From a virus (lineage: Duplodnaviria > Heunggongvirae > Uroviricota > Caudoviricetes), in the IMG/VR virus record IMGVR_UViG_2617270940_000004, positions 1-19,706 of that record: a DNA stretch of 19,706 nt; one strand, 5' to 3'. Shown here in pieces: positions 1-14,719 of this stretch. Position 1 is the stretch's first letter; each line of letters starts with the position of its first letter. The position numbers and the translations under genes are program-made. The notes beneath the pieces were generated by a model. The model searched no databases. It was not told the origin of the DNA and saw only the letters and a list, made by a program, of their open reading frames with translations.

Positions 1-128
1 ATTTCAGCGCAGACAATCACATCGCTGCCCGGTTGTATGCGCGAGGTTACCGACTGCGGCCTGAGTTTTTTAAGTGACGTAAAATCGTGTTGAGGCCAAC
101 GCCCATAATGCGGGCAGTTGCCCGGCAT
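1..128 (-). CDS. insB: IS1 transposase InsB, 5' part only (truncated by window edge)
   Basis: Minus-strand reading from ATG at 128 gives [43 protein letters not shown], matching recalled InsB N-terminus; overlaps insA 3' end in another frame as in IS1. Confidence 0.8.
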
Positions 129-322
129 CCAACGCCATTCATGGCCATATCAATGATTTTCTGGTGCGTACCGGGCTGAGAGGCGGTGTAAGTGAACTGT
201 AGTTGCCATGTTTTACGGCAGTGAGAGCAGAGATAGCGCTGATGTCCGGCGGTGCTTTTGCCGTTACGCACCACCCCGTCAGTAGCTGAACAGGAGGGAC
301 AGCTGATAGAAACAGAAGCCAC
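47..322 (-). CDS. insA: IS1 transposase subunit InsA
   Basis: 91 aa [46 protein letters not shown]... matches recalled IS1 InsA (zinc-finger N-terminus, HTH C-terminus). Confidence 0.9.
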
Positions 323-557
323 TGGAGCACCTCAAAAACACCATCATACACTAAATCAGTAAGTTGGCAGCATCACCGGCTACGCAGAAGCAGCCAAACG
401 CCCCGTGGTTGCGCCGGAAGCAATCGGGCAAGGAAGTGCTGGTGAATAAAAACGAGCACCTTGCGGACGCTGTCGCATCGATTTACACCGGTATGCAAAC
501 TGATCAATTCCGTCAGGTTCGCGATGTTCTTGCTGGAATTTTATAAGTTGATAATTG

Positions 558-577
558 ATAGGTAAGTGCTTATCTAT
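558..577. promoter_or_regulatory. Family A palindromic site (putative operator), imperfect
   Basis: ATAGGTAAGTGCTTATCTAT; near-palindrome matching recurring consensus ATAGGTAAGTAYTTACCTAT. Confidence 0.4.
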
Positions 578-587
578 TACCATGAGA

Positions 588-610
588 CCACTATATATAG
601 TGGTTTTTTT
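588..610 (+). terminator. Rho-independent terminator candidate
   Basis: Perfect hairpin CCACTATATATAGTGG (588-603) followed by T7 run (604-610). Confidence 0.6.
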
Positions 611-811
611 AATTGGGCTACACATAATAAGCATCGTAAAACGTAACGCCCACCGAGCCGCTGCCAGCTGCATGAAGCGCTGACAAAGTTCGCTGTCGAT
701 TGCACTGGCCCGAGCCAGTTCGAATACCTCTAAGCCGAGTTTAACCACTTTGTGGCTTGGCGCTGCTGGGTCAAAATTGGCGTATCAAAAGAAGTCTAAA
801 GGAAAGAAAAC

Positions 812-1690
812 ATGAAATTTACGAAACTGACCGATCATCTGAAACTTGCCGCAGACAAACTCGTGGGGTTTAAACCAGAGCCTTACGAGTTGAATCCCGG
901 TTTCGGCAAGACAACGGAAAGCATCTACCTGATGGTTGACCAGTTCCACACACTGTTTCAGCACCCACGCCGTGCCATTCCAGATCCGGCATTACTGCGT
1001 CTGCGTGCCAAGCTGATCCACGAAGAAGCAGTTACTGAGGGCATCCCGGCAGCCAAAAATGGGGATATGACGGCACTGCTGGACGCGATGGCTGACTTCC
1101 TTTACGTGGGCGTCGGCACAATGGTGGCCATCAAAGGCGGCATCTCGACGGGCATGAGTTACTACACCCAAGAGCAGAGTGTTGATCGCTTCATCCACAC
1201 CATCATGGTTCCGGGCAACACGGTCTTTGACGATATGGCTATCCCGTTTGAAGAAGCAAAAGAAGCTGCATTAATGCTGAATGCGCTGGCTGACAAACTT
1301 GAAGCGAAGCCGATAAGCGATTCCGAATTGGTGCAGGAGCTGCGCCGCGTGATGAACAAAATCTACGTTGCCTGCATGATGACCTACCGTCTGGCTGATT
1401 TTCTCGGAATCGATATTGTTGAGCTGGTGGCAGAAATCCACCGTTCCAACATGACCAAGCTGTGGCCGGCTGACGCCGAAGAGCGTCGTGTGGCGGTAGA
1501 GAATTGCAAATATGACAAGGAAGACCTGGGCTTCCGCCATGCTGAAGGGACTGACATGATGATCGGTTTCAGGGTTTCTGATGGCAAGATCCTCAAATCT
1601 CCCACCTACAGCGATGTGGATCTGACTTGCTTTGTTGAGAAGGCGAAGTCCTCATCTCTTTACGAGATGGTAAAAAATAATTGTAAGTGA
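812..1690 (+). CDS. MazG/HisE-like all-alpha NTP pyrophosphohydrolase (two tandem repeats; possibly dimeric-dUTPase-like)
   Basis: 292 aa; RBS AAGGA 8 nt upstream of ATG. Contains LIHEEAVTEGIPAAKNGDMTALLDAMADFLY (EExxE ... DxxxD pattern typical of MazG/HisE-type pyrophosphohydrolases) and a second similar half (ELRRVMNKIYVACMMTYRLADFLGIDIVELVAEI). Family call from motif recollection only. Confidence 0.5.
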   Translation: MKFTKLTDHLKLAADKLVGFKPEPYELNPGFGKTTESIYLMVDQFHTLFQHPRRAIPDPALLRLRAKLIHEEAVTEGIPAAKNGDMTALLDAMADFLYVGVGTMVAIKGGISTGMSYYTQEQSVDRFIHTIMVPGNTVFDDMAIPFEEAKEAALMLNALADKLEAKPISDSELVQELRRVMNKIYVACMMTYRLADFLGIDIVELVAEIHRSNMTKLWPADAEERRVAVENCKYDKEDLGFRHAEGTDMMIGFRVSDGKILKSPTYSDVDLTCFVEKAKSSSLYEMVKNNCK

Positions 1691-1753
1691 GTACTTATCA
1701 TTATATATTGCCTTGGCGTGTTTTATTGTCCAAGTTCTTAATTGCTCATTGCA

Positions 1754-1783
1754 ATGGTGGCCGAAGAGCCACCATTTTTTTTT
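1754..1783 (+). terminator. Rho-independent terminator
   Basis: Stem ATGGTGGC / GCCACCAT with loop CGAAGA, followed by T9 run. Confidence 0.75.
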
Positions 1784-1833
1784 ACTCCCTTCCTAGCCTT
1801 ACACACTTCTGACAGATAAACTTGTATAAAATA

Positions 1834-1853
1834 ATAGGTATGCACTTACTTAT
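1834..1853. promoter_or_regulatory. Family A palindromic site (putative operator), degenerate
   Basis: ATAGGTATGCACTTACTTAT directly upstream of the ThyA-like gene; outer ATAGGTA...TTAT conserved. Confidence 0.4.
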
Positions 1854-1870
1854 CTTGTGTGAGGTTGATT

Positions 1871-2974
1871 TTGTCTATCCTACTGAATCGAGACTTTACG
1901 AACGGTCAGTTTGCCAGTGGTTCGTATGCCAAAGTGGTTGAAACGGTGCTCAACACTGGCGTTCACGCGGGTGATCGCACCGGAACCGGCACAAAAAGTG
2001 TTTCATATGTCCCTTCCTACTACATGCTGACGGGCGGATCTGTTCCACTTATCTCCGGAAAAGCCGTCAATCTGAAGCCGTTACTGGTTGAGCTGGAGTG
2101 GTATCTCAAAGGAACAGGCAACATCCAGTTCCTGAAAGACAATGGCGTCAAAATCTGGGATGCCTGGGCCGATGAAAATGGCGATTTAGGCCCGGTCTAT
2201 GGCAAGCAATGGCGTCGGTGGGAAGACACTCGCATCGTGAGCCATAGCGAGTATCTGCGCAAAATCGACACGTTCCGTGAGCGCGGGTACAAGGTCGAGG
2301 GGTATCTGGGCGTAAGTGAAGATCGCGTTGTGTTGTCCCGTGAAATTGACCAGCTACAGCGTATCGTTGACACGCTTCGCACCAACCCTACAGATCGTCG
2401 CATCCTGCTGAATGCCTGGAATGTTGGCGAACTGGAAGATATGAAGCTGCCGCCATGCCATTTCGTGTTTTCACTGTGGAGTCGCGAGCTGGACTTTGAG
2501 ACCCGACTGACTATGGCCACCGACATTGGCATACAGCACAACCGCCACGGCCACGAGTCCATGTACACCCAGATGCTGTGTCTTCTGGAAAGAGATGGCG
2601 GCATTACTGAGAACATGCTGGACGAGCTGGGCATCCCGAAACGCATTCTGAACTCATGCCTGGTTCAACGCAGTGTCGATACCTTTGTTGGTATGCCGTT
2701 CAACATCGCCGGTTACGGCATTCTCACCCACTTCCTCGCGAAGATCACCGGCCACATGGCTGGCGCATTCGTGCATTTTGGCTTTGACGTTCATCTCTAC
2801 GACAACCACATGGAAGGCGTTGAGGAACTGATGAAGCGCGAGCCGCCCAAAGAGTCCGACCCGGTTGTCATCTTCCCGCATGAATGGGCCGAACTGGACG
2901 ACTTCAAATGGGAAGGTGTGCAGGTGTGCGGCTACAGCCCTCTTCCGTGGATCAAGGTTCCAGTGGCGGTGTGA
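1871..2974 (+). CDS. thyA: Thymidylate synthase family protein (ThyA homologue with two large insertions and an N-terminal extension)
   Basis: Contains DRTGTGT, IWDAWADENGDLGPVYGKQWRRW, DRRILLNAWNVGELEDMKLPPCHFVF (catalytic Cys in PCH), QRSVDTFVGMPFNIAGY and HLYDNHM, all matching recalled E. coli ThyA blocks. Start uncertain: ORF track gives GTG 1859, but GAGG at 1860-1863 looks like the SD for TTG 1871 (TTG 1865 also possible). Confidence 0.85.
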   Translation: MSILLNRDFTNGQFASGSYAKVVETVLNTGVHAGDRTGTGTKSVSYVPSYYMLTGGSVPLISGKAVNLKPLLVELEWYLKGTGNIQFLKDNGVKIWDAWADENGDLGPVYGKQWRRWEDTRIVSHSEYLRKIDTFRERGYKVEGYLGVSEDRVVLSREIDQLQRIVDTLRTNPTDRRILLNAWNVGELEDMKLPPCHFVFSLWSRELDFETRLTMATDIGIQHNRHGHESMYTQMLCLLERDGGITENMLDELGIPKRILNSCLVQRSVDTFVGMPFNIAGYGILTHFLAKITGHMAGAFVHFGFDVHLYDNHMEGVEELMKREPPKESDPVVIFPHEWAELDDFKWEGVQVCGYSPLPWIKVPVAV

Positions 2975-2975
2975 T

Positions 2976-3389
2976 ATGGCCAGAGGGATGTATGTGTTGT
3001 GTGAAATTGAAGGTGTGCTGGCGAGAGCCAGCCATCGCAAAGCAGTGCCTGATGCGGATGCAGGCGCTCTTATTGCCGGTGATGAACTCATCTTTCCCAC
3101 CAGCCGCATGTTGCGTGGTTTTGCTCGCTCCGGTGCTGAAGTGGTGCTTATCAGTAGTCGTCCGGAAGCGCTCGAAGGCCCAACCAAGCGCTGGCTGAAG
3201 GACTTCGGCATTGATTATGACTGGCTCCACCTGGTTCCGCGCGGTGTCAGTTTTGAAACCCATATCAAGCGCACGCTGGCAGAGCACAAAGGCGACTTAC
3301 TTATCGCCGCACTGGTTCATGATCCGCGTCTGCGTTCTGCGCTGGCAAATTCTCACCAGCGACCAACCATCTATGAGGTAAGCCAATGA
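2976..3389 (+). CDS. HAD-superfamily, NT5C-like 5'(3')-deoxyribonucleotidase-fold protein with non-canonical motif I (ExE instead of DxD)
   Basis: ATG at 2976, 1 nt after the ThyA stop; stop overlaps DHFR start (ATGA). MYVLCEIEGVLA aligns with the HAD/NT5C motif hhhhDxDGVL; later blocks (VVLISSRPEALEGPTKRWLKDFGIDYDWLHLV, LLIAALVHDP) fit HAD motifs II-IV. Weak, motif-level call. Confidence 0.4.
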   Translation: MARGMYVLCEIEGVLARASHRKAVPDADAGALIAGDELIFPTSRMLRGFARSGAEVVLISSRPEALEGPTKRWLKDFGIDYDWLHLVPRGVSFETHIKRTLAEHKGDLLIAALVHDPRLRSALANSHQRPTIYEVSQ

Positions 3390-3862
3390 AGATGATTGCA
3401 GCTGTCGGCCGCAACTATGAAATCGGCATTGGCAACGAACTTCCCTGGCGTTGCCCGACCGATCTGAAACTGTTCAAACAACTCACCAAAAACGCCACTG
3501 TCGTGATGGGACGTAAGACGATGGAAAGTCTTAAACGCCCGCTGCCAGAGAGCCATAACCTCGTTTTGACGCGCTCTCGTGGCTATATCCCCAATGGTTT
3601 CTACCCCGCTGGCATCGATGACGTTTTAAAACTACCAGATCCGGTCTGGGTGATTGGTGGCGGGCAGATTTACTCGCTCTTTATGCCACACGTTGAAGAG
3701 ATCTGGCTGTCGCATATTGGCGTGGATGTGTCGGGCGCGGATGCGTTCTTCCCGGCGCCAATGATGCGTTCTTTAGGGTTCGTACCAGTCGAAACGGCTT
3801 ATACCCAACGTGCAAATGAGGATGAGCCTGGCTTTTTGCAGATCGTATACAGAAGGTCGTAA
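3386..3862 (+). CDS. folA: Dihydrofolate reductase
   Basis: 158 aa; MKMIAAVGRNYEIGIGNELPWRCPTDLKLFKQLTKNATVVMGRKTMESLKRPLP parallels the DHFR N-terminus (IAA..IG..MPW..P.DL..FK..T....V.MGR.T.ES...PLP); VIGGGQIY matches the glycine-rich NADPH loop. GAGG RBS 7 nt upstream. Confidence 0.85.
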   Translation: MKMIAAVGRNYEIGIGNELPWRCPTDLKLFKQLTKNATVVMGRKTMESLKRPLPESHNLVLTRSRGYIPNGFYPAGIDDVLKLPDPVWVIGGGQIYSLFMPHVEEIWLSHIGVDVSGADAFFPAPMMRSLGFVPVETAYTQRANEDEPGFLQIVYRRS

Positions 3863-4506
3863 TGGATTACCGGATTGGAATCACTGGCGCACAGGGCAGT
3901 GGGAAAACAACCCTGGCAAGGTACATCGATGCGCACTATGGCATTCCGTATGTGGATGCTGGTGTTGGCAAGCTGATGAGCAGTCTGGGGGTGAAGGTTG
4001 GCGAGCGTTTGCCCCTTTACGAGCGTCTTCAGGTTCAGATGGAGATTGCCAGACACATCGAGATGATCACCCGCGGCGTTGAAGGTTTTGTCATCGACCG
4101 CACGCCAGCCGATGTCATGGCTTATACGCTTGACCTGGTCGGCCAGACCAACGAAGACCGCTGCATCGAGCTGGCTCTCGACATTGAGCAGTTTTGCCAC
4201 AAAGCGACCATTTCCAACTTCAATGCTATAGCGGGTCTTCGCCCGGGCGTTGAGCTTTCCAGCAAAGATCTCGCGCGTCCCCAGCGAGGATCGCTTGACC
4301 GTCTCTATGTTGCTCGCATCGATGCACTTATGTGTGGCGAGCTGACGAAAATTAGCGCCCTTCCCCATACCGGCGATTTGCAGGTTTTCATTATCTCTGA
4401 AAAGTGCCGCACGGTTGAGGCGCGAGCCAGATCGGTATTGCGTGTGCTGGAAAGAGCCACTGAAAACATCGAGAGCCGTATAACAGGACGAGTGACCTTC
4501 CACTGA
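3862..4506 (+). CDS. P-loop nucleotide kinase, T4 gp1-like deoxynucleoside monophosphate kinase candidate
   Basis: Walker A IGITGAQGSGKTTLA at N-terminus; FVIDRTPADVMAY resembles the PDTRQDHE region of T4 gp1 as recalled. Start overlaps DHFR stop (TAATG). Confidence 0.55.
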   Translation: MDYRIGITGAQGSGKTTLARYIDAHYGIPYVDAGVGKLMSSLGVKVGERLPLYERLQVQMEIARHIEMITRGVEGFVIDRTPADVMAYTLDLVGQTNEDRCIELALDIEQFCHKATISNFNAIAGLRPGVELSSKDLARPQRGSLDRLYVARIDALMCGELTKISALPHTGDLQVFIISEKCRTVEARARSVLRVLERATENIESRITGRVTFH

Positions 4507-4569
4507 ATGTTGTTCCCCTGTTGGGCAGTGTGACAATAAGACACGCGAAATGAATTGAGGAAAAACAGA

Positions 4570-4989
4570 ATGATAGATGAACTTCCCCTGTCGGATGAAT
4601 TAGATCGCAAAGCGATTGAAGCACTGATCCGTATTGCTGACGAACAATCCCGTTCCTTAATGAGTGAACGTGAAGCACGTCTGGCTATCCGAGCAGTGTT
4701 TGAGTCCGTTCAAGGTCTTGTTGGGGAAGAGGTTGGTGAAGCCATTAATGCGGCGATGTCGCAATTCAATGGCGGCACCAAGCGCTCTCTGTTTCCTATG
4801 CATCTCAAACTCTCGGGCGGTACGGTTTTTTATGTGTCCGTTTGCCTGGAGACTAACCAAATCCAGCTCCTCAACACGTCAACGGGCGAATGGCGTGAGC
4901 CGGTCGTCTGCGAAAGCGGCGAGGACGCACTAAAAAAGGCTGCTCAGTTTGTGCGTGGCGCACTGCTGAAAGGCGCGAAGAAGCTGTAA
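4570..4989 (+). CDS. Hypothetical protein
   Basis: ATG at 4570 with GAGGA 8 nt upstream (ORF track TTG start at 4555 lies inside the SD); 139 aa, no recognisable motif. Confidence 0.5.
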   Translation: MIDELPLSDELDRKAIEALIRIADEQSRSLMSEREARLAIRAVFESVQGLVGEEVGEAINAAMSQFNGGTKRSLFPMHLKLSGGTVFYVSVCLETNQIQLLNTSTGEWREPVVCESGEDALKKAAQFVRGALLKGAKKL

Positions 4990-4998
4990 GGAGTACCA

Positions 4999-5553
4999 AT
5001 GACCACGATTGTCGGTGGCGTCGATATTGAGTCCACGGGGCTGGACTTCACATCCGGCCACAAAATTATCGAAATCGCGATATCTCGTTATGAACTGGAA
5101 ACCCAGAAGCGCATTGACAGCCTTGAGATGCGCTTCAACCCGCGTCGTAGCATCGATCTGAAGGCGCAGGCTGTACATGGTATCTCTCTGGAAGAACTGG
5201 CTGCTGAACCGCTGTTGGCTGATCACGCAGGTAAGATTGCTGCATATATGGGGGCATGTAGCGCGTTAGTCGCCCATAACGGGGAGGCTTTTGACCTTCC
5301 GTTCATTCGCCACGAGTTCGGAAGCTATGGAGTGAAATTGCCAGAAATCCCTCTGGTTGACACTCTATTTTCCCTGTGGGCTACCGAGGATGGGAAGCGC
5401 CCACGCCTGGAAGAGCTGGCATTCTCACTTGGGTTCACTTACGACCGTGAGAAAGCCCACAGTGCTCTCTACGATACTGATCTGATGATGCAGTGTTTCT
5501 TCAAAGCCCGAGAGAAATACGGCTTCTTCAAACTCCCATTCGAAAGCGCCTGA
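4999..5553 (+). CDS. DnaQ-like (DEDDh) 3'-5' exonuclease
   Basis: Exo I DIESTGL, Exo II ALVAHNGEAFDLPFI, Exo III HSALYDTD; AAGGAG RBS 5 nt upstream of ATG. Confidence 0.7.
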   Translation: MTTIVGGVDIESTGLDFTSGHKIIEIAISRYELETQKRIDSLEMRFNPRRSIDLKAQAVHGISLEELAAEPLLADHAGKIAAYMGACSALVAHNGEAFDLPFIRHEFGSYGVKLPEIPLVDTLFSLWATEDGKRPRLEELAFSLGFTYDREKAHSALYDTDLMMQCFFKAREKYGFFKLPFESA

Positions 5554-5568
5554 TGGCGCTTTTTCTTT
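5543..5568 (+). terminator. Rho-independent terminator candidate overlapping the exonuclease stop codon
   Basis: Stem AAAGCGCC / GGCGCTTT with loop TGAT, followed by TTTTTCTTT. Confidence 0.5.
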
Positions 5569-5681
5569 GCCTCCAGTTCCTTTAACTGCCTGTAGTTATG
5601 ACTTTTCTGCCTGATAGGTTTTGCCAGAATAAGCTCAACCAAAACGCGGAAATGCACCAACGAAAACATAAGGAGTTAAAA

Positions 5682-6554
5682 ATGAGCGCAGTTTCAAACA
5701 TTGTTAAAAACGATGACCTGGATGAATTGACTGCAATGCTGCAATCTCTCGAAGAACCGGTTCTGAAAGCTGCGAAAATGAGCGGTATCGACGAGATCGA
5801 CGATCTTCTCTCTGGTCTGGATGATGCAATCGCAAAACCAGTCGAGGCGGTGGCAGATGAAGTCATGAATGTCAGCTCTACCGGCGATCTGAGTGGCGTT
5901 CTGGAAGAGCTTGAGATTGCACACGAATCGGTGAAGGTCGAGGAGCCAGAGCGTGGCCCTATTGCGGAGATAGTGGACGAGCCAACACCTGAACTTGATG
6001 CTCGAAGCGCTGAGACCACCGATATAGCTCCAACGCTTTTACCTTCAGTGGAGTCTGGGCCTAAACCTGAAGAAGAGCAGCCAAAACACCAGAAGGCACA
6101 ATCAAAGCGTGCGCCGACCAAACCTCGCTTCACGCTGGAGGGTAAGGATGAATCGTTCTATGTGACAGCCGGTCTGGATAGTGAGCGCTTTACTGCCGCA
6201 TTCGAAGGCGCGCCGATCAAAGCGAAAGACAAAATCTTAAACCTCCTGAACTGGTTTAGTGGTGGCCCGGAAATCAGCGTCTACACGGTAATCGCAATGC
6301 GCCATATTCTTGATACGAACACGGCGACCAGCAATAGCATTAAACTGGCGCTAATGAGCTACCCGGAGAAACCATATCCACTTAACACGGCTTCGACTCA
6401 GGCTGGCCAGATGATGGCTGTGTTTCCGGCCACAGGCATTGCCACCAGAGAAGGTGGAAATCTAACGCTTAATAAAGAGTCGCCGATCGTCAAAAAATTC
6501 ATAGCGGAGTATTCCATTGAACAATGTTCCTCTGCACGATCTAAAGCACCCTGA
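5682..6554 (+). CDS. Hypothetical protein with acidic, low-complexity N-terminal half and a globular C-terminal domain
   Basis: ATG at 5682 with AAGGAG 7 nt upstream (ORF track start 5598 is an upstream TTG). N-terminal ~150 aa rich in D/E/P/S/A; C-terminal part ordinary composition. Confidence 0.55.
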   Translation: MSAVSNIVKNDDLDELTAMLQSLEEPVLKAAKMSGIDEIDDLLSGLDDAIAKPVEAVADEVMNVSSTGDLSGVLEELEIAHESVKVEEPERGPIAEIVDEPTPELDARSAETTDIAPTLLPSVESGPKPEEEQPKHQKAQSKRAPTKPRFTLEGKDESFYVTAGLDSERFTAAFEGAPIKAKDKILNLLNWFSGGPEISVYTVIAMRHILDTNTATSNSIKLALMSYPEKPYPLNTASTQAGQMMAVFPATGIATREGGNLTLNKESPIVKKFIAEYSIEQCSSARSKAP

Positions 6555-6601
6555 GAGCTTTAGGACGCTGGGTAAGCTCATTGCATACCCAGCATCGATA
6601 A

Positions 6602-6653
6602 AACGCGCCAGAGAGCTTCCCGTTTGCGAATCTGGCGCGTTCTTCTTTGTTTG
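6602..6653 (+). terminator. Rho-independent terminator candidate (preceded by a second hairpin at 6568-6594)
   Basis: 11 bp perfect stem AACGCGCCAGA / TCTGGCGCGTT with 18 nt loop, followed by CTTCTTTGTTTG. Confidence 0.55.
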
Positions 6654-6677
6654 CTATCCGTTGGATTAAATGAAAAA

Positions 6678-6697
6678 ATAGGTAAGTATTTACCTAT
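6678..6697. promoter_or_regulatory. Family A palindromic site (putative operator)
   Basis: ATAGGTAAGTATTTACCTAT, near-perfect 20 bp palindrome 12 nt upstream of the methyltransferase start. Confidence 0.55.
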
Positions 6698-6709
6698 CAG
6701 AGTAAGGTA

Positions 6710-7303
6710 ATGATCGCAGCCGAAAAAATCAAAAAGCGAGAGCGTGATGCCTCTCTTCGCGACCTTTGGCGCACACCGCAGTGGTTGTTTGTCGCCATCC
6801 AACGTTACATAGGCGTAAAGTTCGATGTGGACGTCGCCTGCAACAAAGATAATGCTCTCCTGACGAACTTTATCGGTGTTGAGCGTGATGCGCTCAAGTG
6901 CAGTTGGGGAGAACCTGGCACTGTGGCGTTCCTTAACCCGCCCTACTCCAAAATCACCCCCTGGATAGATGCAGCCATTCGCGAGCAGGCGCGTGGAGTG
7001 ACGACGGTCATGCTGATACCACAATCCCTCGATACGCAGTGGTACGAGCGTGCGGCTGAATGCGCCAACGAAACCGTCATCTTGTCTGGCGGCCGCGTGG
7101 CGTTCGTTGAGCCGGATGTTGAACTTGGGCTGGTGGAGGTGAACATCAACCCTGGTGGCAGCATGTTGCTTATCTTCCGTGGCTACTGTCAGGAAGCTGG
7201 GCACACCATCAGCAAGATACCGCTGGCGGTGATGAAAAAGCTGGGTGGTTATGACCCTGCCAATGTTGTCAGGAAGAAGAGACCACGTAAAAAGGCAGCG
7301 TAA
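6710..7303 (+). CDS. Orphan DNA N6-adenine methyltransferase (phage Dam-like family, NPPY motif)
   Basis: 197 aa; DLWRTPQWLF ... FDVDVACN ... GTVAFLNPPYS follows the layout of phage-type N6-adenine MTases; no restriction endonuclease gene adjacent. Confidence 0.75.
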   Translation: MIAAEKIKKRERDASLRDLWRTPQWLFVAIQRYIGVKFDVDVACNKDNALLTNFIGVERDALKCSWGEPGTVAFLNPPYSKITPWIDAAIREQARGVTTVMLIPQSLDTQWYERAAECANETVILSGGRVAFVEPDVELGLVEVNINPGGSMLLIFRGYCQEAGHTISKIPLAVMKKLGGYDPANVVRKKRPRKKAA

Positions 7304-7505
7304 ACACCAGTCTGGGAGTTAGTTTGAGAACCTGCTTCCGTATATATAAATAACTAAGTACTAATTATTAATATATACAGACGCAGGCTTTTTAAGACGT
7401 GATTTCCAAACAACTCCCAGACCGTTTTACACCTCCAGAACCCACTGGAGCCCCTCTCCAGACGCTCTAGAATCGATTTTATGAACCACAGTAAGGAAAA
7501 CTATC

Positions 7506-7736
7506 ATGGTATACCCGACGAACGTCGTAGCGCTCGTTGAGAGCGATTTTCTGGCCACAGTGCGCGACATGATGAAAGATCGCGATAAGGCTTTCAGTCT
7601 CTACGAATGGTCGCTCAAATGTCTTCATTCAGGCGAGCACAAAGAGCTGGTGGAGCAGCTGTTAGGGGAACTCATCAATGAGGTGTTTGCCCTGAACGTC
7701 CAGCTTCATGGGCGAGAAATTAATCAATCAATATAA
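7506..7736 (+). CDS. Hypothetical small protein (76 aa)
   Basis: ATG with AAGGA 8 nt upstream; stop codon overlaps the family A palindrome at 7736-7755. Confidence 0.5.
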   Translation: MVYPTNVVALVESDFLATVRDMMKDRDKAFSLYEWSLKCLHSGEHKELVEQLLGELINEVFALNVQLHGREINQSI

Positions 7737-7755
7737 TAGGTAAGTACTTACCATT
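7736..7755. promoter_or_regulatory. Family A palindromic site (putative operator)
   Basis: ATAGGTAAGTACTTACCATT; core GGTAAGTACTTACC is a perfect 14 bp palindrome. Confidence 0.55.
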
Positions 7756-8330
7756 CAAAACGCCACTAACCAGTGATACAATCTATCCGCTTCCGGATAC
7801 TTTCGGCAGCTCGACCTGATGGGTGGGGGATAGCGTCACTGGCGTCAGGTTTAAAAAAGCTCACTACCAGCGTAGAACCGGCACCGTTTAGGGGTTGGGG
7901 AAGGGGGAACCAAAGTGGGCAGAGAGAAGGGTCACTTTATGATTGTCGAGTCTGGAGTGTTTCGAGAGGTTGAATCCAGTACTCCCCTTCATAAAGTGTG
8001 GGAAGATCTCGGTTCTGGGGTGCTGTCATCCATAACTTCCCAAGCCTAAGCTGGCAGTAGACTTAGGTCATAACTTTTCAGGTTATGAAACGACCAGGTT
8101 GGTGAGGAAATTTTGTACTCACCTCCCTGGGAGAGTATTACCTGAAAAGACAACCTCTCACTTCGTTCGAGGTGAACTTCACTCACTTCGTTCGTTCAGT
8201 TCAGGTTTTATTAAAACCTGTTCTGGGAAGTAATTTTTCTTTTCTAAAAAATTTTTAATATTTACACGCACGCGTGCGCACACGCGCGAGGGGAAAAAAA
8301 ATCGTCGCGGCGCGCGATTCTGGAGCCAAA

Positions 8331-8939
8331 ATGACGACCAAGACCCCAGCCCGGCAACATACTGGCTGCCGCACGAAGTCCAAAGCCAGATACCAAACCC
8401 ACCAGCAATCCCGTACCAACTTCAAAACCCCCGTAGTCGAGTTCAATCCCCAGCTCAAAACCGTAAAAGTATTCAGTGATGGCTCCTGCCTCAAAAATCC
8501 GGGCGGGCCGGGCGGTTACGGCATCGTTCTCCAGTATCGAGGCGAAGAGCGCGAGCTTTCTGAGGGCTTCCACAGCACGACCAACAATCGGATGGAGATG
8601 ATGGGCGCCCTGATTGCGCTGGAGCGTCTGAAGTACCCCTGCAACGTGATCCTGCATTCCGACAGCCAGTATCTTAAAAACGGCATGACGCTCTGGATGA
8701 AAGGCTGGAAGCGTAACGGATGGATCACGTCTGAGAAGAAGCCAGTCAAAAACGTGGATCTCTGGAAACGTCTCGACGCGGCCGCCAGTCGTCATAATGT
8801 CCGCTGGAAGTGGGTTAAAGGCCATGCAGGTCATCGCGAGAACGAAATGTGTGACCGTCTGGCGAAGATCGCCGCCTATTCCGCAGCTGATATGCCTCAC
8901 AAGCATGACATTGGGTTTTTGTCACAAAAAGATAAGTAA
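8331..8939 (+). CDS. rnhA: Ribonuclease HI homologue with ~45 aa basic N-terminal extension
   Basis: [75 protein letters not shown] and [20 protein letters not shown] match recalled E. coli RNase HI blocks. Start set at ATG 8331 (GGAG 5 nt upstream); ORF is open from 8274. Confidence 0.8.
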
Positions 8940-8951
8940 GTATTTACCTAC
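8932..8951. promoter_or_regulatory. Family A palindromic site (putative operator)
   Basis: ATAAGTAAGTATTTACCTAC overlapping the RNase H stop codon (TAA 8937-8939). Confidence 0.5.
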
Positions 8952-9031
8952 TATAATAAATCAGGTATCTTATAAATCGTCAGGATGACGAAGTACCGGT
9001 TAGGTACGGTTCCAGGATGGAACGCCAAAAG

Positions 9032-9052
9032 GCGGCTGGCTTGGCCAGCCGC
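9032..9052 (+). terminator. Hairpin, weak terminator candidate
   Basis: Stem GCGGCTGGC / GCCAGCCGC with loop TTG, followed by AACTCTTTCT (poor U-tract). Confidence 0.3.
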
Positions 9053-9081
9053 AACTCTTTCTGACACTGAATGGAATCCAC

Positions 9082-9582
9082 ATGGCCCGTCAAACGTCTT
9101 TCACTTCTTTCAATAAACGTCCCCGTTCAATTCGCCTGGTGCTGACCGAGCTGTTTAGTGGTCGTGTTTCCGCACGCCTTACGGAACTGGAAGAACGAGT
9201 GTTTGAACTGGAGAAGCGCATTAATGCGCAAGCTACCGCCATAGCTAATCTGGGCACGACAGTAGGCATGGAGAAGGTGCGTAATAGCGTCGCTTCTCGT
9301 GTGTTGCGTGAAACCCGGACACACAAGGACAGTTCTCATGGAAAATTTTCAACGAAATCGACTGAAGCCAATGGCCTACGGAGTGATTTTGGCAACTCTG
9401 GCAGCGATTACCGTACCAGCCGGTCAGAGCCTTTTGATGCCGGGCACAGCTACTTCCACTGCCACCACAGCCTTGCAGATGACACCCCTGCCCGAACGAC
9501 CTCCTGTCTCTCTGGATGGGATGCTGATGGACACGATTCCAGCTCGACCTGCGACTCCGGATCTTCCTTCTGCTGTGACTGA
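9082..9582 (+). CDS. Hypothetical protein with predicted coiled-coil segment; 3' half doubtful
   Basis: 166 aa ORF; residues ~30-75 (RLTELEERVFELEKRINAQATAIANLG) look coiled-coil; C-terminal third is S/D/G/C/H-rich and overlaps an alternative-frame ORF (9338-9595), so the 3' extent is uncertain. Confidence 0.35.
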   Translation: MARQTSFTSFNKRPRSIRLVLTELFSGRVSARLTELEERVFELEKRINAQATAIANLGTTVGMEKVRNSVASRVLRETRTHKDSSHGKFSTKSTEANGLRSDFGNSGSDYRTSRSEPFDAGHSYFHCHHSLADDTPARTTSCLSGWDADGHDSSSTCDSGSSFCCD

Positions 9583-9595
9583 GGCTATTGTATGA
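9338..9595 (+). CDS. Hypothetical small membrane/secreted protein (alternative frame to 9082-9582)
   Basis: ATG 9338 with AAGGA 9 nt upstream; hydrophobic segment MAYGVILATLAAITVPA; stop overlaps start of next ORF (ATGA at 9592-9595). Confidence 0.4.
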   Translation: MENFQRNRLKPMAYGVILATLAAITVPAGQSLLMPGTATSTATTALQMTPLPERPPVSLDGMLMDTIPARPATPDLPSAVTEAIV

Positions 9596-9780
9596 AATGG
9601 AACTTCCAGAAATTCACCTTGATGATTGTTGGCTTTACCGTTTTTTTGTTTAGCGGCTGGATCATGAATCTGGTGAAACTTGTGAACGATGGTGATCTCC
9701 AGTCTCATGCCGGAGTGACACTTGCGCGTGTCGTGGGCATTTTCGTTGTTCCGGTGGGCGGCATCCTCGGGTTCTTTTGA
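9592..9780 (+). CDS. Hypothetical small membrane protein (62 aa, two predicted TM helices)
   Basis: GAGG 7 nt upstream; FTLMIVGFTVFLFSGWIM and VVGIFVVPVGGILGFF hydrophobic stretches. Confidence 0.45.
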   Translation: MKWNFQKFTLMIVGFTVFLFSGWIMNLVKLVNDGDLQSHAGVTLARVVGIFVVPVGGILGFF

Positions 9781-9802
9781 TGCTGAATGATTTTCTGCAT
9801 TG

Positions 9803-9820
9803 TTAAAACAAATTGTTTAG
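9803..9820. promoter_or_regulatory. Family B palindromic site (putative operator)
   Basis: TTAAAACAAATTGTTTAG; half-sites AAACAA / TTGTTT around a central base. Confidence 0.5.
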
Positions 9821-9846
9821 ACAAATGATTAATGAGAGTTAACAAC

Positions 9847-9870
9847 AAGGGCCGCTGACGGCCCTTTTGT
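9847..9870 (+). terminator. Rho-independent terminator candidate
   Basis: Stem AAGGGCCG / CGGCCCTT with loop CTGA, followed by TTGT. Confidence 0.55.
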
Positions 9871-9886
9871 ACTGAATGGAAAACGT

Positions 9887-10702
9887 ATGTTTGAGGTAAC
9901 TGCACACGCTCCCAGCACCACAGGCTTACATGCCAGGCCATCGATGACCAGTCAGGAGATCGCCGAAATGGTCGGCAGTCGCCATGACAGCGTAAAACGC
10001 ACCATTGAAAGACTCGCTAAATCCGGCGTTATTACTTTTCCACCAATGGTGGAAAAGCCCACTGCCGGGCGTCCGGCTACCTTTTACTTGTTCGAAGCCG
10101 AACAGGGTAAGCGCGACAGTATCGTTGTCGTGGCACAGCTTTCTCCTGAATTTACCGCACGTCTTGTTGATCGGTGGAGAGAGCTTGAATCCATGTTTGC
10201 CTACCACGGAACGCCTGCTATTCCGCGTACCTATAAAGAAGCGCTGGTTCATTTGCTGCGCCAGGTTGAGGAAAACGAGCGTCTGGAGAGTGAGAACGAG
10301 GCGTTGGGCGTAGCACTATCCAACGCAAAGCCAAAAGCCATTCTCATGGACACCATTTGCGGCACTGCTGATGAACTTTATGGGTTGAATGAAGCCGGTC
10401 GCATTCTCGGCACGTCCGGGGCTGTTCTGGGTGCGCTGATGGACTCGCTGGGTGATGTGTACGTTAAGCGCAAATACACCACTGTTAACCGCCAGTTCCT
10501 CAAGATCTTCATTGACCGCGGATATGGCAAAAACGTTGTCATCGGAAACGGTCGCAACCAGGCCAAGTTCACCTTTAAAGGGCTTTGCTTTGCAGCTGTG
10601 AAACTAATTGCAGCCGGGTTGATTGCCTCCAGCGCCATTGAATATGAGCCGTGTCGTGAGCATGTCGAACGTGCAATGAAGGAATCCAAACGTCTTCATT
10701 GA
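9887..10702 (+). CDS. Phage antirepressor-type regulator (Rha-like N-terminal domain + ANT/KilAC-like C-terminal domain)
   Basis: N-terminal MTSQEIAEMVGSRHDSVKRTIERL resembles the Rha family; C-terminal ILGTSGAVLGALMDSLGDVYVKRKYTTVNRQFLKIFIDRGYGKNVV resembles the ANT domain. Start uncertain (9887 or 9944). Confidence 0.55.
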   Translation: MFEVTAHAPSTTGLHARPSMTSQEIAEMVGSRHDSVKRTIERLAKSGVITFPPMVEKPTAGRPATFYLFEAEQGKRDSIVVVAQLSPEFTARLVDRWRELESMFAYHGTPAIPRTYKEALVHLLRQVEENERLESENEALGVALSNAKPKAILMDTICGTADELYGLNEAGRILGTSGAVLGALMDSLGDVYVKRKYTTVNRQFLKIFIDRGYGKNVVIGNGRNQAKFTFKGLCFAAVKLIAAGLIASSAIEYEPCREHVERAMKESKRLH

Positions 10703-10773
10703 CCGTCAGTATGGACGTCCACCTTTATGTAGCGTTTGGCCACCTTTTCAGTCACGTCACAATAACACAATTG

Positions 10774-10791
10774 AGAAAACAACTTGTTTAA
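10774..10791. promoter_or_regulatory. Family B palindromic site with conserved upstream ATAACA box (putative promoter/operator)
   Basis: AGAAAACAACTTGTTTAA preceded by CAATAACACAATTGAG; lies ~20 nt upstream of the 10811 start codon. Confidence 0.55.
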
Positions 10792-10810
10792 AAACATAAG
10801 GAAAAAACAC

Positions 10811-11383
10811 ATGTGCGACAAATGCAAAAAAACTAATGCCAAAGTTGAAAGCGTGATTAAAAAAGTTGGTGCGGCCGAACTGGTTGAGATCATGGGTCTT
10901 GTGGCTGGTCACGAAGACGACGCCTCCCCTATTGACCGCCTTTTCAGCGTTCTCAAGTTCTCAAGCATGATTGATGATCCGATTGAAATTGTGATGCTGG
11001 CGCGTCATTTCGGCGAAGCGTATCTGGAAGAGAAAGAACGCGCCGACAAACTTCAGGCAACTCTGGAAATGGTAAGCAAGCCGAAGTGCTCACCGGATTC
11101 AGTCAAGGCAGATGAAACCAACGCCAGCAAAGATCGTGAAATCGCCGGGTTGAAGTTTTCTCTGGCGATGTTGCTGGCCGCCTTCAAACTGATGTCTTCC
11201 CAGGCTGGATTCAAAATGCCTGAGCTGAACAGCGACGATCCGATGGCCGTTCGCCAGCTGCTGGGGGCAATGGCCGACCAGCTTGACGACACCAAGAGCC
11301 GTCTTGAAGACATGATGCGCGAGCTGACCCATCGCTACGACCTGAACAAACAGCCGCAAAAGATGCAGCCTTTACATCATTAA
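10811..11383 (+). CDS. Hypothetical protein
   Basis: ATG 10811 with AAGGA 8 nt upstream (ORF track TTG start 10784 lies inside the operator motif); 190 aa, N-terminal CDKCKK. Confidence 0.5.
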   Translation: MCDKCKKTNAKVESVIKKVGAAELVEIMGLVAGHEDDASPIDRLFSVLKFSSMIDDPIEIVMLARHFGEAYLEEKERADKLQATLEMVSKPKCSPDSVKADETNASKDREIAGLKFSLAMLLAAFKLMSSQAGFKMPELNSDDPMAVRQLLGAMADQLDDTKSRLEDMMRELTHRYDLNKQPQKMQPLHH

Positions 11384-11388
11384 TATAT

Positions 11389-11405
11389 AGGGGGCAAAGC
11401 CCCCT
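11389..11405. terminator. Bidirectional hairpin between convergent genes
   Basis: AGGGGGC AAA GCCCCCT perfect stem-loop between the stop of 10811-11383 (+) and the stop of 11409-11828 (-). Confidence 0.5.
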
Positions 11406-11408
11406 ACT

Positions 11409-11828
11409 CTACTTTGCGGCGTCTAACAATAAGCCGCAATTTTCGCTCATGTATGCCGCAGTTGCCGGATTGCCTCTGTCATTATTCGAATTGTTCATTT
11501 CAGGGTGAGCGTCCCAGGCCACTGATTCCTGAGATGATAGATAGACGGCAAAGTCGACGATTTCATCATCTCCGGTTTTAACGTTGCCAAGCAATTCATT
11601 TGCCTTTCTCCAGTGCTTCAGCGCGAGAATTCTGAACTGTTTTGCATTTTCAGCAGGCACTGCACTGGATTTGTCTGTGTAGATATTCGATATGTCGGCA
11701 TAAAGAGCGCATTTAACATAGCTGGTTGCCCTGCCGGTCTCTTTAAAACGTTGCTCTGTGTTGTTGGCGTAGACATTCACAGCAAAAGCGCTGGCAATTC
11801 CCAGCAATATAATTTTCTTCATCATCAT
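11409..11828 (-). CDS. Hypothetical secreted protein with signal peptide
   Basis: N-terminus MMMKKIILLGIASAFAVNVYA is a signal-peptide-like sequence; the only substantial minus-strand gene outside the IS elements; AT-rich; no clear SD. Confidence 0.5.
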   Translation of the reverse strand: MMMKKIILLGIASAFAVNVYANNTEQRFKETGRATSYVKCALYADISNIYTDKSSAVPAENAKQFRILALKHWRKANELLGNVKTGDDEIVDFAVYLSSQESVAWDAHPEMNNSNNDRGNPATAAYMSENCGLLLDAAK

Positions 11829-11971
11829 TACTCAATAAGGAGGCGACAAATATCTTACGTGTAGTTGTCAGTTGAGTATTAAGCAAACTCAATAAACTTA
11901 TAAGTATCTCCCTGTGCAGCCTGTGAATCCTTATTTATTACCTACTCAATTTTGAAATAATAACACCAACA

Positions 11972-11989
11972 AGAAAACAATTTGTTTAA
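11972..11989. promoter_or_regulatory. Family B palindromic site with conserved upstream ATAACA box
   Basis: AGAAAACAATTTGTTTAA preceded by TAATAACACCAACAAG; ~10 nt upstream of the 12000 start codon. Confidence 0.55.
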
Positions 11990-11999
11990 TGGTGCAGTC

Positions 12000-13685
12000 A
12001 TGAATACAGCCCTTTCCATCATTGACGCTATCACTCCAAACACTGATATCGACTACCGGCAGGAAATGAACGTTATCCACGAAATTGTGGCCGAGTGCGA
12101 GAAAGAGATCGCATTCATGCATCAGGTTCACGACTTCGTTTATGGCGACGAACGCCACAGCATGATTAACCGTCTACTGCGGCTCAATCACCGGCCGGAC
12201 GACGAGCGCACACGCTTTAACAGAACCTGGCTGGACAAAGTCGACCTGGAATGGGTGAAACAAAATATCTGGGCCGAGTACTGGAAGAAGGTCACGGATA
12301 TGACCAACGTTCTGTTGATCATGCCAGCATCCCGCCGCGACGAGTGGCGTGAACAGTTTATCGAGGGCAAGCAGGAAACGATCAAGACTGACAGAACTGG
12401 CTATCAAATGAAGGTTAAAGAGTTCGTTGGTGTACCTGAGTTCAAAGCAGAAACGGTCATACCAACGATGCTTAATTTGCTGAATGACAGGCACAAATAT
12501 CTCTCTGAGCGCGTGTATGGCTTGTTTAAGGCGTTGAGTCCTGCTCACAAGACCAATAAGACGAACGGCTTCAGCGAGCGTCTGATCATCGCCGACTGCA
12601 TTTCCGATTTCTGGCGGGACAGCGTCAGCGTTAACTACCGGAAAGAGGATTACATAGACGACCTGCGCGTCATGTTGCATTTCTTTGCACACAAAGAATT
12701 TATCACCATCAATCGCACGGCCGAGATGCTGTCAGCTGCGTATCGAGCAAATGACTGCCAGACCGGCGACTGGATGAATGTCGACGGAAACCTGATGCGT
12801 GTGAAGATGTTTAAGAACGGCAACGTTCACTTTGAAATACATCCTGACGTAGCCTGGAAGCTGAATGAGGTGCTGGCTTACAGTATGCCCGCTGCAATCC
12901 CGGCTCCATGTCGTACTGCGCCCAAAACACGGGCACCAAAACAGTTCGGGTTAATCCAGAAGACGATCTCCGAGCCGGTGCGTACTGCGCTTCGCGACGG
13001 GCGATCTGGCAATGACAAACGCGTATGGTACTTCTCTGATTCCGGTCTCCAGAAGTCACAGGTGGAAGAGCTGGAGCGTACACTGAGCTTTATTGGCGGC
13101 GTGCAGGAGAACAAGCACTGGCAGTTCCCGTATGAGATCGGCCATACGCTCAATACGATTGTGGCCACCGGCGTAATACCGGATACAAAATCACACCAGT
13201 TCTACCCTACCCCGCGTTTGATAGCGGAGTACGTTGCCAGAGCCATTGAGCTGAAACCAGGTGAGAAGCTGCTGGAGCCTGAAGCCGGGCGTGGAGATCT
13301 GCTGGCCTGCATCGACGCCAACCCGGAAGACGTCACCTGCATAGAAGTCGCGCCTCTCTTTGCTGATATCCTGCTTGGCAAGGGGTACACAAATACGGTC
13401 TGCTGCGACTTCATGAAGTGGTCTGAGAACAACGCAGGCTATCAGTTCGACAAAATCGTCATGAACCCACCCTACTCTCTCGGTCGTCACAGAGAGCACA
13501 CATTGGCCGCGCTGGGGCATCTGAAAGTTGGTGGGCGTCTGGTAGCAGTGCTGCCGGGCGACGCGCCAATTCTAAACTGGATGACGCTGGATAATTACGT
13601 TTATGCCAAAGGGAAGTCGTTTACTAACGTGTTTGAAGACACCGGGATTACTGTCAGCGTATACGTTTTTAAACGCGTTAAATGA
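12000..13685 (+). CDS. Large orphan N6-adenine DNA methyltransferase (C-terminal SAM-dependent MTase domain, N-terminal ~400 aa domain of unknown function)
   Basis: C-terminal FYPTPRLIAEYVA ... LLEPEAGRGDLL (motif I) ... DKIVMNPPYSLG (motif IV NPPY). No adjacent restriction gene. Start set at ATG 12000. Confidence 0.7.
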   Translation: MNTALSIIDAITPNTDIDYRQEMNVIHEIVAECEKEIAFMHQVHDFVYGDERHSMINRLLRLNHRPDDERTRFNRTWLDKVDLEWVKQNIWAEYWKKVTDMTNVLLIMPASRRDEWREQFIEGKQETIKTDRTGYQMKVKEFVGVPEFKAETVIPTMLNLLNDRHKYLSERVYGLFKALSPAHKTNKTNGFSERLIIADCISDFWRDSVSVNYRKEDYIDDLRVMLHFFAHKEFITINRTAEMLSAAYRANDCQTGDWMNVDGNLMRVKMFKNGNVHFEIHPDVAWKLNEVLAYSMPAAIPAPCRTAPKTRAPKQFGLIQKTISEPVRTALRDGRSGNDKRVWYFSDSGLQKSQVEELERTLSFIGGVQENKHWQFPYEIGHTLNTIVATGVIPDTKSHQFYPTPRLIAEYVARAIELKPGEKLLEPEAGRGDLLACIDANPEDVTCIEVAPLFADILLGKGYTNTVCCDFMKWSENNAGYQFDKIVMNPPYSLGRHREHTLAALGHLKVGGRLVAVLPGDAPILNWMTLDNYVYAKGKSFTNVFEDTGITVSVYVFKRVK

Positions 13686-13704
13686 GAGGTAAATACTTAC
13701 CTAA
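13685..13704. promoter_or_regulatory. Family A palindromic site (putative operator)
   Basis: AGAGGTAAATACTTACCTAA, starting at the last base of the methyltransferase stop codon. Confidence 0.5.
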
Positions 13705-13747
13705 TCTATGTAAGAATATAGTGACTATATGATAAGAGAAAAAACAC

Positions 13748-14437
13748 ATGAGCAATCTTCCGTTAGAGCGTTTTAACGTCAAAAGCCATGCCGACTTTCC
13801 TTTCAAATTTGTAATGAGAGGTTATGCAGAGGAAGCAGTAGGCCAGATCATCATTGACAAAGGCATTGTTAAGTTTGAAGGGGATTATGATGAATCCGCG
13901 AAAACATTCATAGACTTCGTTGCTAAACGTTGGAGCGAGCAATGGAGAGACCTGGAAAAACGTGCTCGTGAATTTGATGTATTCATGTCTGCAATTGATA
14001 CAGAAAAAACGGCTCTGGCTGCGGGTACTCCGTTAGATTTGGAGTCTCTGTTTAAAGGTGAAATGGCCTCTGCGATGTTCGCAACCATGTTTGCCGGTGA
14101 GTTTGTTCGTAGCGGGGCCAGAAACTACCTGGAGCTGGGGTACGACGTTCCTGAAATGGGTGAGTTTACCGTCACCATTCAACGCAAAGAAGGTAAGACT
14201 CCTGGCGAACGTATCGCTGAACTTGAGGCCGTTGTGGATCAGCGTAACGGCGAGTGCGTCCGTTTGATTAATGAACGTGATGCGCTGCGCGAAGAGCAGC
14301 TAAACAAAGGCTCGAACACACGCGCGGCCGCAGACATCTACTTCCAGTTGGTTGAGGAATGCCAGATCCCGCCAGGTGGCTCTTTGGTCGAGTTCGTTCG
14401 CGAATTGCAGGAGAAAGCAGAGAGGTGCGCGGCATGA
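13748..14437 (+). CDS. Hypothetical protein (229 aa)
   Basis: Long ORF with ordinary composition; stop overlaps next start (ATGA at 14434-14437). Confidence 0.5.
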   Translation: MSNLPLERFNVKSHADFPFKFVMRGYAEEAVGQIIIDKGIVKFEGDYDESAKTFIDFVAKRWSEQWRDLEKRAREFDVFMSAIDTEKTALAAGTPLDLESLFKGEMASAMFATMFAGEFVRSGARNYLELGYDVPEMGEFTVTIQRKEGKTPGERIAELEAVVDQRNGECVRLINERDALREEQLNKGSNTRAAADIYFQLVEECQIPPGGSLVEFVRELQEKAERCAA

Positions 14438-14673
14438 ATGATCTGCTTGTCGAGCGAGTCTCCGCTTTTGTTAAGTCCCCGCTGAATAATCCCCTCACCC
14501 GCTGTGAGCAGATGGAGCTGGCAAGGTGGTTTCTGCGTATCCATGAGCAGATGGAAGTTTTTAAACAGTTGCCGGATCTGCCCATTACAGACGGCCAAAT
14601 TCAGTGTGCCACTTCAGTACGGTCGACGATGACAACGACGCAAACCTGCTTTTCGTCAAATCCGAAATCATAA
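14434..14673 (+). CDS. Hypothetical small protein, possibly frameshifted at its 3' end
   Basis: ATG 14434 with GAGAGG upstream, translationally coupled to the previous gene; C-terminal ~25 aa look non-protein-like while another frame looks protein-like (see findings). Confidence 0.4.
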   Translation: MNDLLVERVSAFVKSPLNNPLTRCEQMELARWFLRIHEQMEVFKQLPDLPITDGQIQCATSVRSTMTTTQTCFSSNPKS

Positions 14674-14719
14674 AGTTGCGCAGGGAGAGAGAGAAATCGA
14701 CGCAGAGCAGGCCCGCAAT

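Follow-up and report, generated by a model that had tools for sequence, protein, structure and literature searches.

The four plus-strand genes at positions 3862-6554 of a tailed-phage sequence (Caudoviricetes; IMG/VR virus record IMGVR_UViG_2617270940_000004, of which positions 1 to 19,706 are the window analysed here, 19,706 nucleotides in full) are likely the downstream end of a conserved block for DNA precursors and replication in a phage-plasmid of the SSU5 kind, equipped with a putative proofreader pair and winged-helix regulator. An earlier note on this DNA, made from the letters alone, had considered the run as a nucleic-acid processing or anti-defence module and its arrangement as not housekeeping. 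The broad processing idea holds good in the sense of a deoxynucleoside triphosphate (dNTP)-synthesis and replication block of a phage-plasmid; the anti-defence idea does not. What the four genes form is an ordinary module, conserved in a phage-plasmid type already known, and for this phage lineage the arrangement, to judge from gene order, is the norm and a housekeeping one, not an accessory oddity.

The window is part of a phage-plasmid of the SSU5/pHCM2 type because of its plasmid matches and its 93% identity to Salmonella phage SSU5 over positions 3700-6700. The same interval is ~100% identical to the Escherichia coli plasmid pYUXYEH3934-1, and the element shows ~100% nucleotide identity to plasmid NZ_CP110979. 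Among the matches listed, ~24 further plasmids (96-133 kb, almost all of E. coli origin) are 98-99.5% identical over this interval, which is matched by 679 plasmid records in all, mostly non-mobilisable. The SSU5 counterparts of the four genes are SSU5_084 to SSU5_087. They are preceded by NrdA, NrdB, a MazG-like pyrophosphohydrolase, ThyA, a small HAD/PNKP-phosphatase-like protein and DHFR, and followed by a Dam-type methyltransferase and RNase H. The phages SSU5, Cyrano and PhiR41_1 and the pHCM2-type phage-plasmids carry orthologues in identical order, which persists unchanged at 72% nucleotide identity in Cyrano and PhiR41_1. At larger distance (25-45% protein identity) the succession of ThyA, DHFR, P-loop protein, exonuclease and acidic protein is kept in 7 of 10 contigs (32-115 kb) retrieved from uncultivated viruses, the whole core order except DHFR was found in Pseudomonas phage nickie in the search made, and Rhizobium phage RHph_X66 keeps the pair of exonuclease and acidic protein. 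Phage nickie is furthermore colinear with SSU5 over the entire replication region (DnaB, primase, ligase, CobT/S, DnaE, SSB, exonuclease, recombinase, SbcCD-like, RuvC-like, NrdAB, ThyA), and the replisome genes of both phages comprise DnaE, DnaB, primase, ligase, SSB and a FEN-type nuclease. This recurrence of the order contradicts the view that the arrangement is not a housekeeping one.

All four open reading frames, encoding 214, 139, 184 and 290 amino acids (aa), are present as the earlier note had placed them, in position and in strand (Table 1), and their start codons are those of the RefSeq annotation of the near-identical plasmid. The double hairpin said to close the run was also found, and the folding of this region yields -44.3 kcal/mol (z = -3.7). 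A further hairpin at 5542-5563, overlooked in that reading, folds with -14.3 kcal/mol (z = -3.07) and holds the exonuclease stop codon inside its loop, so that terminator-like hairpins flank the gene of the acidic protein on either side. Because this hairpin, with its U-tract, encloses the exonuclease stop, the run probably consists of two transcription units, the acidic-protein gene being a unit of its own. A scan of 5566-5681 for a sigma-70 promoter of this gene gave none above the threshold and none convincing by eye.

The product of this separate gene is a two-part protein. A longer reading frame starting at 5598 was dismissed, as the ribosome-binding site AAGGAG precedes the ATG at 5682, which is also the point where every homologue starts. 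Residues 1-135 hold 34 D/E against 9 K/R, giving a net charge of -25 and an isoelectric point (pI) of 4.05, and are followed by a basic patch; residues 136-290 have a pI of 9.35. In the AlphaFold2 model the confidence score pLDDT amounts to 49-80 for residues 1-90 and falls to 31-36 for residues 91-140; residues 85-142 are predicted to be disordered. Across the family the acidic region varies from 76 to 194 aa and is poorly conserved in sequence, retaining short conserved helical motifs only. Of 137 family representatives, 39 contain the pattern [DE]L[DE]xLLxxL[DE], whereas shuffling yields it in 2 of 137 sequences. The acidity described earlier is therefore real, while the region spans ~135 rather than ~150 residues and, with its conserved short helical motifs, is not featureless. 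The C-terminal part folds confidently (residues 150-278) as a winged helix, with the succession helix, strand, helix, recognition helix and beta-hairpin wing. Four residues are invariant family-wide: T236, where the predicted recognition helix (residues 234-251) starts, Q243 inside that helix, and K184 and N187 in a helix (179-192) that lies N-terminal to the winged-helix core. A profile search with the C-terminal domain collected 588 representative clusters, nearly all measuring 210-330 aa and carrying the domain C-terminally; in this family the N-terminal regions have a median of 24% D/E against 9% K/R. The protein matches only the uncharacterised phrog_5235 and phrog_3932. Pfam (E <= 0.01) gave nothing for it or for 40 relatives, NCBIfam and PADLOC likewise gave nothing for the protein itself, and a direct sequence search of the PDB was equally empty. 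In a further domain-profile homology search the source annotation read 'hypothetical protein' throughout the winged-helix family. Foldseek against the PDB returned weak, generic winged-helix matches (E ~0.2) to transcription regulators. With the winged-helix regulators ArsR/SmtB, MarR, Fur, PadR and MecI/BlaI the likeness is one of fold, not of sequence family, and in the phage protein the domain is C-terminal and preceded by a long stretch, acidic and disordered, which is absent from these regulators. On this model we take the 5682-6554 product to be a sequence-specific DNA-bound regulator or organiser, the tail of which would recruit a partner or mask the DNA-binding surface. Apart from this, a C-terminal -AA (LAA, KAA, EAA or AAA) was seen in 30 of the 137 acidic winged-helix representatives, where 2.6 are expected, and also in 8 of 12 distant epsilon homologues. 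Such ends resemble C-terminal degrons of the ssrA type, recognised by ClpXP; they are absent from the proteins of the window itself.

Of interest with regard to a DNA-bound protein is a 16-bp palindrome, AGGTAAGTAyTTACCT, which has 6 copies in the window against 0.4 expected, a count reached by none of 200 shuffles. The copies lie at 560-575, 1836-1851, 6680-6695, 7738-7753, 8934-8949 and 13687-13702, with a related copy at 1684-1697, and every one of those in the window is intergenic, between plus-strand genes. The core TAAGT..ACTTA is found 14 times in SSU5 (0.8 expected), 6 times within 18 kb of RHph_X66 (against 0) and 4 times in viral contig L016 (against 0.3). The palindromes stand directly 3' of stop codons, usually with an A/T-rich, TATAAT-like hexamer before them, and in RHph_X66 a Shine-Dalgarno sequence comes after them. 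Their role could be that of operators bound by a dimeric protein, or of promoter-plus-stem-loop units; the winged-helix protein is one candidate binder, with AGGTAAGTAYTTACCT as its candidate DNA target sequence.

The acidic winged-helix protein might alternatively be a lytic origin-binding initiator or a replisome hub, modelled on lambda O or on the acidic tails of phage SSBs, whose acidic motifs would recruit DnaB or the polymerase. Many initiators use winged helices, the gene is always situated in the replication/nucleotide block (usually 0.1-2.5 kb downstream of the epsilon gene), and neither in SSU5 nor in nickie is a lytic initiator or helicase loader annotated. However, a repeat search of 5400-6900 returned chance-level two-copy matches only, with no iterons or AT-rich repeat clusters, the fold matches are generic and point to transcription regulators, and no partner was identified. 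We therefore regard this role as rather unlikely and retain the DNA-bound regulator or organiser as the preferred reading of the protein.

The exonuclease encoded upstream of it has the three motifs of its class intact: Exo I DxE (DIESTG, residues 9-14), Exo II NxxxFD (HNGEAFD, 93-99) and Exo III-epsilon HxxxxD (HSALYD, 154-159). It scores 72.9 bits with Pfam RNase_T (PF00929; gathering threshold 24) and 9e-47 with PHROG 192, 'DNA polymerase exonuclease subunit', and its top PDB match is the N-terminal domain of E. coli epsilon (1j53, 8e-10, residues 9-168 aligned). To E. coli epsilon (1j53, 5fku) it is alike in the DEDDh fold and the three Exo motifs, and seemingly also in being a stand-alone subunit that serves a DnaE-type polymerase with an inactive PHP domain. 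E. coli epsilon possesses 57 extra C-terminal residues that bind the PHP domain of alpha (PMC2528190, PMC3664792); in the phage protein neither this ~57-residue segment nor the QTSMAF motif for clamp binding is present, and a conserved G-[FY]-F-x-[LSF] stretch forms its end. A reading of its C-terminal GFFKLPF as a beta-clamp-binding motif was dropped, since distant homologues retain only G-[FY]-F-x-[LSF]. The phage exonuclease would work in the manner of epsilon, yet it does not fully belong to the proteobacterial epsilon family.

The polymerase to be served is known from SSU5, whose DnaE-type enzyme (1172 aa; PHP, pol3-alpha, finger and HhH domains) has MKALMVRTDFSLGES at the N-terminal position of the PHP His-x-His. 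The His-x-His motif is typical of active PHP domains; because it is absent here, the PHP site of the phage DnaE is probably inactive, and a trans-acting proofreader is therefore to be expected. Most simply, the exonuclease would be this trans-acting, epsilon-type proofreader of the phage DnaE, in contact with it. What had been regarded as a non-housekeeping oddity reads as an ordinary epsilon-type proofreading subunit, the very case that the earlier note had set against its own proposal. Conceivably the enzyme is a nuclease working on its own, which breaks down DNA or RNA that is of host origin or damaged and so supplies the adjacent nucleotide-salvage enzymes, in keeping with the missing alpha-binding C-terminal segment, a score below the dnaQ equivalog cut-off and the nucleotide-metabolism genes beside it. 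Yet its nearest sequence relatives with solved structures are epsilon subunits, its gene co-occurs with a phage DnaE that has a degenerate PHP motif, distributive DEDDh enzymes are poor at bulk DNA degradation, and SSU5 has SbcCD-type and FEN-type nucleases for such a role. On balance we find the free-standing nuclease improbable and prefer the proofreader.

The gene preceding the exonuclease encodes a protein of 139 aa without Pfam or NCBIfam matches. A hidden Markov model of the family was searched against 12 divergent phage loci and in 10 of them found a homologue upstream of the exonuclease gene; at five loci or more, the two genes overlap by their stop and start codons. In the window they are separated by 9 nt containing GGAG, and in RHph_X66 an HNH endonuclease gene lies between them. 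Invariant in the family are the motif [DE]E[LI]xRK and one glycine. With regard to the theta (HolE)/phage P1 HOT type, no likeness to E. coli theta was found (hhalign probability 0.1%), and a PDB profile search gave no match. Given that its gene precedes that of the exonuclease in 10 of 12 loci, the 139-aa protein is likely an epsilon partner or epsilon-binding accessory subunit. Remote-homology searches and structure prediction, proposed earlier for the products of 4570, 4999 and 5682, gave an epsilon-type enzyme for 4999 and a winged helix for 5682, and were uninformative for 4570.

The first gene of the run begins with an ATG that overlaps the DHFR stop codon (TAATG, as read from the sequence), and the DHFR gene in turn overlaps the HAD-like gene. 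The P-loop of its product was confirmed by the motif GAQGSGKT at residues 9-16, and Pfam AAA_28 is matched with 38.8 bits (cut-off 27). Both PHROG matches are weak: 6e-10 to PHROG 2107 'thymidylate kinase' and 0.004 to PHROG 139 'dNMP kinase' (deoxynucleoside monophosphate kinase). In 10 homologues from divergent loci GxxGxGK (G9, G14, K15), R55, Q59, D79-R80-T81-P82 and R188 are invariant, so that the Walker A loop, the (D/E)R motif and the substrate-binding Arg and Gln are all present. In a PDB profile search the sole alignment extending past the P-loop was to deoxyguanosine kinase (2jaq/2jas, E ~7e-4). Deoxynucleoside and dNMP kinases (2jaq, thymidylate kinases, T4 gp1) share with the protein the Walker A loop and the conserved Arg and Gln of the substrate-binding region, its D-R-T stands at the position of their (D/E)RS/Y motif, and its gene lies within a block for deoxythymidine monophosphate (dTMP) synthesis; the sequence similarity itself is weak (E ~7e-4). 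Fold and operon position support a nucleotide or nucleoside kinase for dTTP/dNTP synthesis, and we infer that it is probably a dNMP kinase of the thymidylate type.

Little remains to suggest that the run belongs to an anti-defence system, in which the acidic protein would be a restriction-blocking DNA mimic like Ocr (T7 gp0.3) or ArdA and the exonuclease would process nucleic acids so as to evade host immunity. The strong negative charge of residues 1-135 (net -25) is indeed what the protein has in common with Ocr and ArdA, acidic tails of other proteins can mimic DNA, and the gene adjoins that of the Dam-type methyltransferase, itself able to protect against restriction. Ocr and ArdA, however, are compact, fully folded and acidic throughout, whereas the phage protein shows no sequence match to them, its acidic part is variable in length and sequence and mostly disordered (residues 85-142 as predicted), and its conserved part is a basic winged-helix domain with a DNA-binding fold. 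An anti-restriction DNA mimic of the Ocr/ArdA kind is not supported for the acidic protein. Nor do defence or anti-defence collections claim the run: PADLOC gave P-loop-level and generic DEDDh matches for it and none for the 139-aa and acidic proteins, the latter being unmatched also by Pfam and NCBIfam families. With the acidic-protein gene moreover located within the replication block in every relative examined, and its Cyrano counterpart CYRAN_78 absent from the prophage genes listed as expressed in Cyrano lysogeny (PMC9928086), we consider an anti-defence module very improbable.

Taken as the end of a DNA-precursor and replication block, the run could work as follows. The SSU5-like element is a temperate siphovirus maintained as a plasmid, in which the run extends the MazG-ThyA-HAD-DHFR block. 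The kinase most likely phosphorylates dTMP or other dNMPs, allowing the phage to make its own dNTPs. The 139-aa protein and the exonuclease, a conserved and closely spaced gene pair, would act together, the exonuclease proofreading 3'-5' for the phage DnaE. As the phage epsilon is without the ~57-residue tail that joins E. coli epsilon to alpha, the 139-aa protein may supply a tether or stabilise epsilon. Beyond the terminator, the acidic protein would be expressed as a separate unit; its C-terminal winged helix probably binds double-stranded DNA as a dimer on palindromic sites, and short amphipathic motifs in its disordered acidic N-terminus may recruit or occlude a partner. In this way gene expression or replication would be regulated or organised by a phage-specific protein bound to DNA.

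Several observations weigh against parts of this scheme. The shared gene order may stem from common descent of the whole lineage rather than from functional coupling. The Pfam match of the kinase (AAA_28) is generic, the Pfam thymidylate-kinase model gives none, and NCBIfam kinase matches are sub-threshold only. With NCBIfam dnaQ_proteo (TIGR01406) the exonuclease scores 1e-20 and 74 bits, far below the equivalog cut-off of 222.7, and as it ends at residue 184, directly after the catalytic domain and without an alpha-binding tail, it could act alone. The 19.7-kb window contains no DnaE gene, the link to a polymerase being drawn from SSU5 and nickie, and the fold search of the 139-aa protein being uninformative, its contact with epsilon is read from gene order. 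DNA binding by the acidic protein is argued from its fold, with no target site tied to it; the connection with the palindromes is unproven, because nickie carries the winged-helix protein but not the TAAGT..ACTTA palindrome. Going one step further, we tentatively put forward, as a possibility that we would not yet expect to hold, that the SSU5/Nickievirus/Rhizobium 120-kb lineage, with its own DnaE, carries two unrecognised components: a 139-aa tether replacing in function both epsilon's C-terminal segment and theta, and an acidic-tailed winged-helix protein that binds palindromes of the type described above and organises transcription or replication genome-wide.

The analysis removes a false lead, in that the run appears as core phage housekeeping and not as a cassette with an accessory or anti-restriction role. 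For two of the four proteins the families are uncharacterised and widespread among phages, being encoded beside a proofreading exonuclease in a large phage lineage of ~100 kb; a literature search found no paper on the function of the four SSU5-type genes. This lineage includes phage-plasmids spreading in clinical Enterobacteriaceae, with the trimethoprim-insensitive DHFR gene dfrA51 adjoining the run. To learn how a tail-less epsilon joins the phage DnaE, and what the acidic winged-helix protein binds, would fill gaps in the replication and control of these elements.

Table 1. Features of the gene run and its surroundings, in window coordinates
Position	Strand	Feature	Basis or remark
1871..3862	+	Thymidylate synthase, HAD/PNKP-phosphatase-like protein and DHFR (upstream context)	Junctions overlapping or near-abutting, into the kinase gene
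3862..4506	+	P-loop nucleoside/nucleotide-kinase-fold protein, 214 aa	Pfam AAA_28, PHROG 2107
4570..4989	+	139-aa protein, phrog_5373, uncharacterised family	Conserved upstream neighbour of the exonuclease gene
4999..5553	+	DEDDh 3'-5' exonuclease, DnaQ/epsilon type, 184 aa, catalytic domain only	Pfam RNase_T, PHROG 192, 1j53
5542..5570 (hairpin 5542-5563)	+	Intrinsic-terminator-like hairpin GAAAGCGCC-UGAU-GGCGCUUUU with U-tract	RNA fold
5682..6554	+	Two-part protein, 290 aa, phrog_5235: acidic N-terminal region, basic patch, C-terminal winged helix	Own ribosome-binding site AAGGAG, 5671-5676
5682..6086	+	Acidic N-terminal region, aa 1-135, motifs DLDELTAMLQSLE and EIDDLLSGLD	Charge profile, family alignment
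6129..6515	+	Winged-helix domain, aa 150-278	AlphaFold2 model, fold matches, family alignment
6567..6655 (hairpins 6567-6593, 6602-6641)	+	Two hairpins, terminator of the acidic-protein gene	RNA fold; U-rich tail after the second
6680..6695	.	Perfect palindrome copy AGGTAAGTATTTACCT	Lies 15 nt before the start codon of the Dam methyltransferase gene

Some differences set the window element apart from its SSU5-type relatives. Its proteins are close to those of SSU5 (exonuclease 94%, acidic protein 88% and DHFR 98% identical), but the gap between the genes of epsilon and the acidic protein is shorter, the acidic protein is 10 residues longer at its C-terminus, and nrdAB is missing upstream. Around 618-745 a remnant was recognised in which the start of nrdA is fused to the end of nrdB, the nrdA ATG being now ATA; the ribonucleotide reductase genes (~3.4 kb), which SSU5, Cyrano and nickie possess, have been lost by deletion. 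The DHFR gene at 3386-3862, just upstream of the kinase gene, is the one 98% identical to SSU5 DfrA51, which has been shown to raise the trimethoprim minimum inhibitory concentration and is reported to make E. coli resistant to trimethoprim when expressed there (PMC12217456). At 8274-8939 lies an RNase H-type reading frame (Pfam RNase_H), the counterpart of SSU5_090; it is not a listed coding sequence in the gene table of the matching plasmid, where it may have been called a pseudogene or simply omitted. The right end of the window (18433-19706) holds two overlapping reading frames that, judged by translation only, resemble an IS2/IS3-family transposase (InsC/InsD-like), which points to an insertion in the backbone of the phage-plasmid. 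Within this same backbone, IS421 and restriction genes are also carried by the best-matching plasmid (188 kb, IncFIB).

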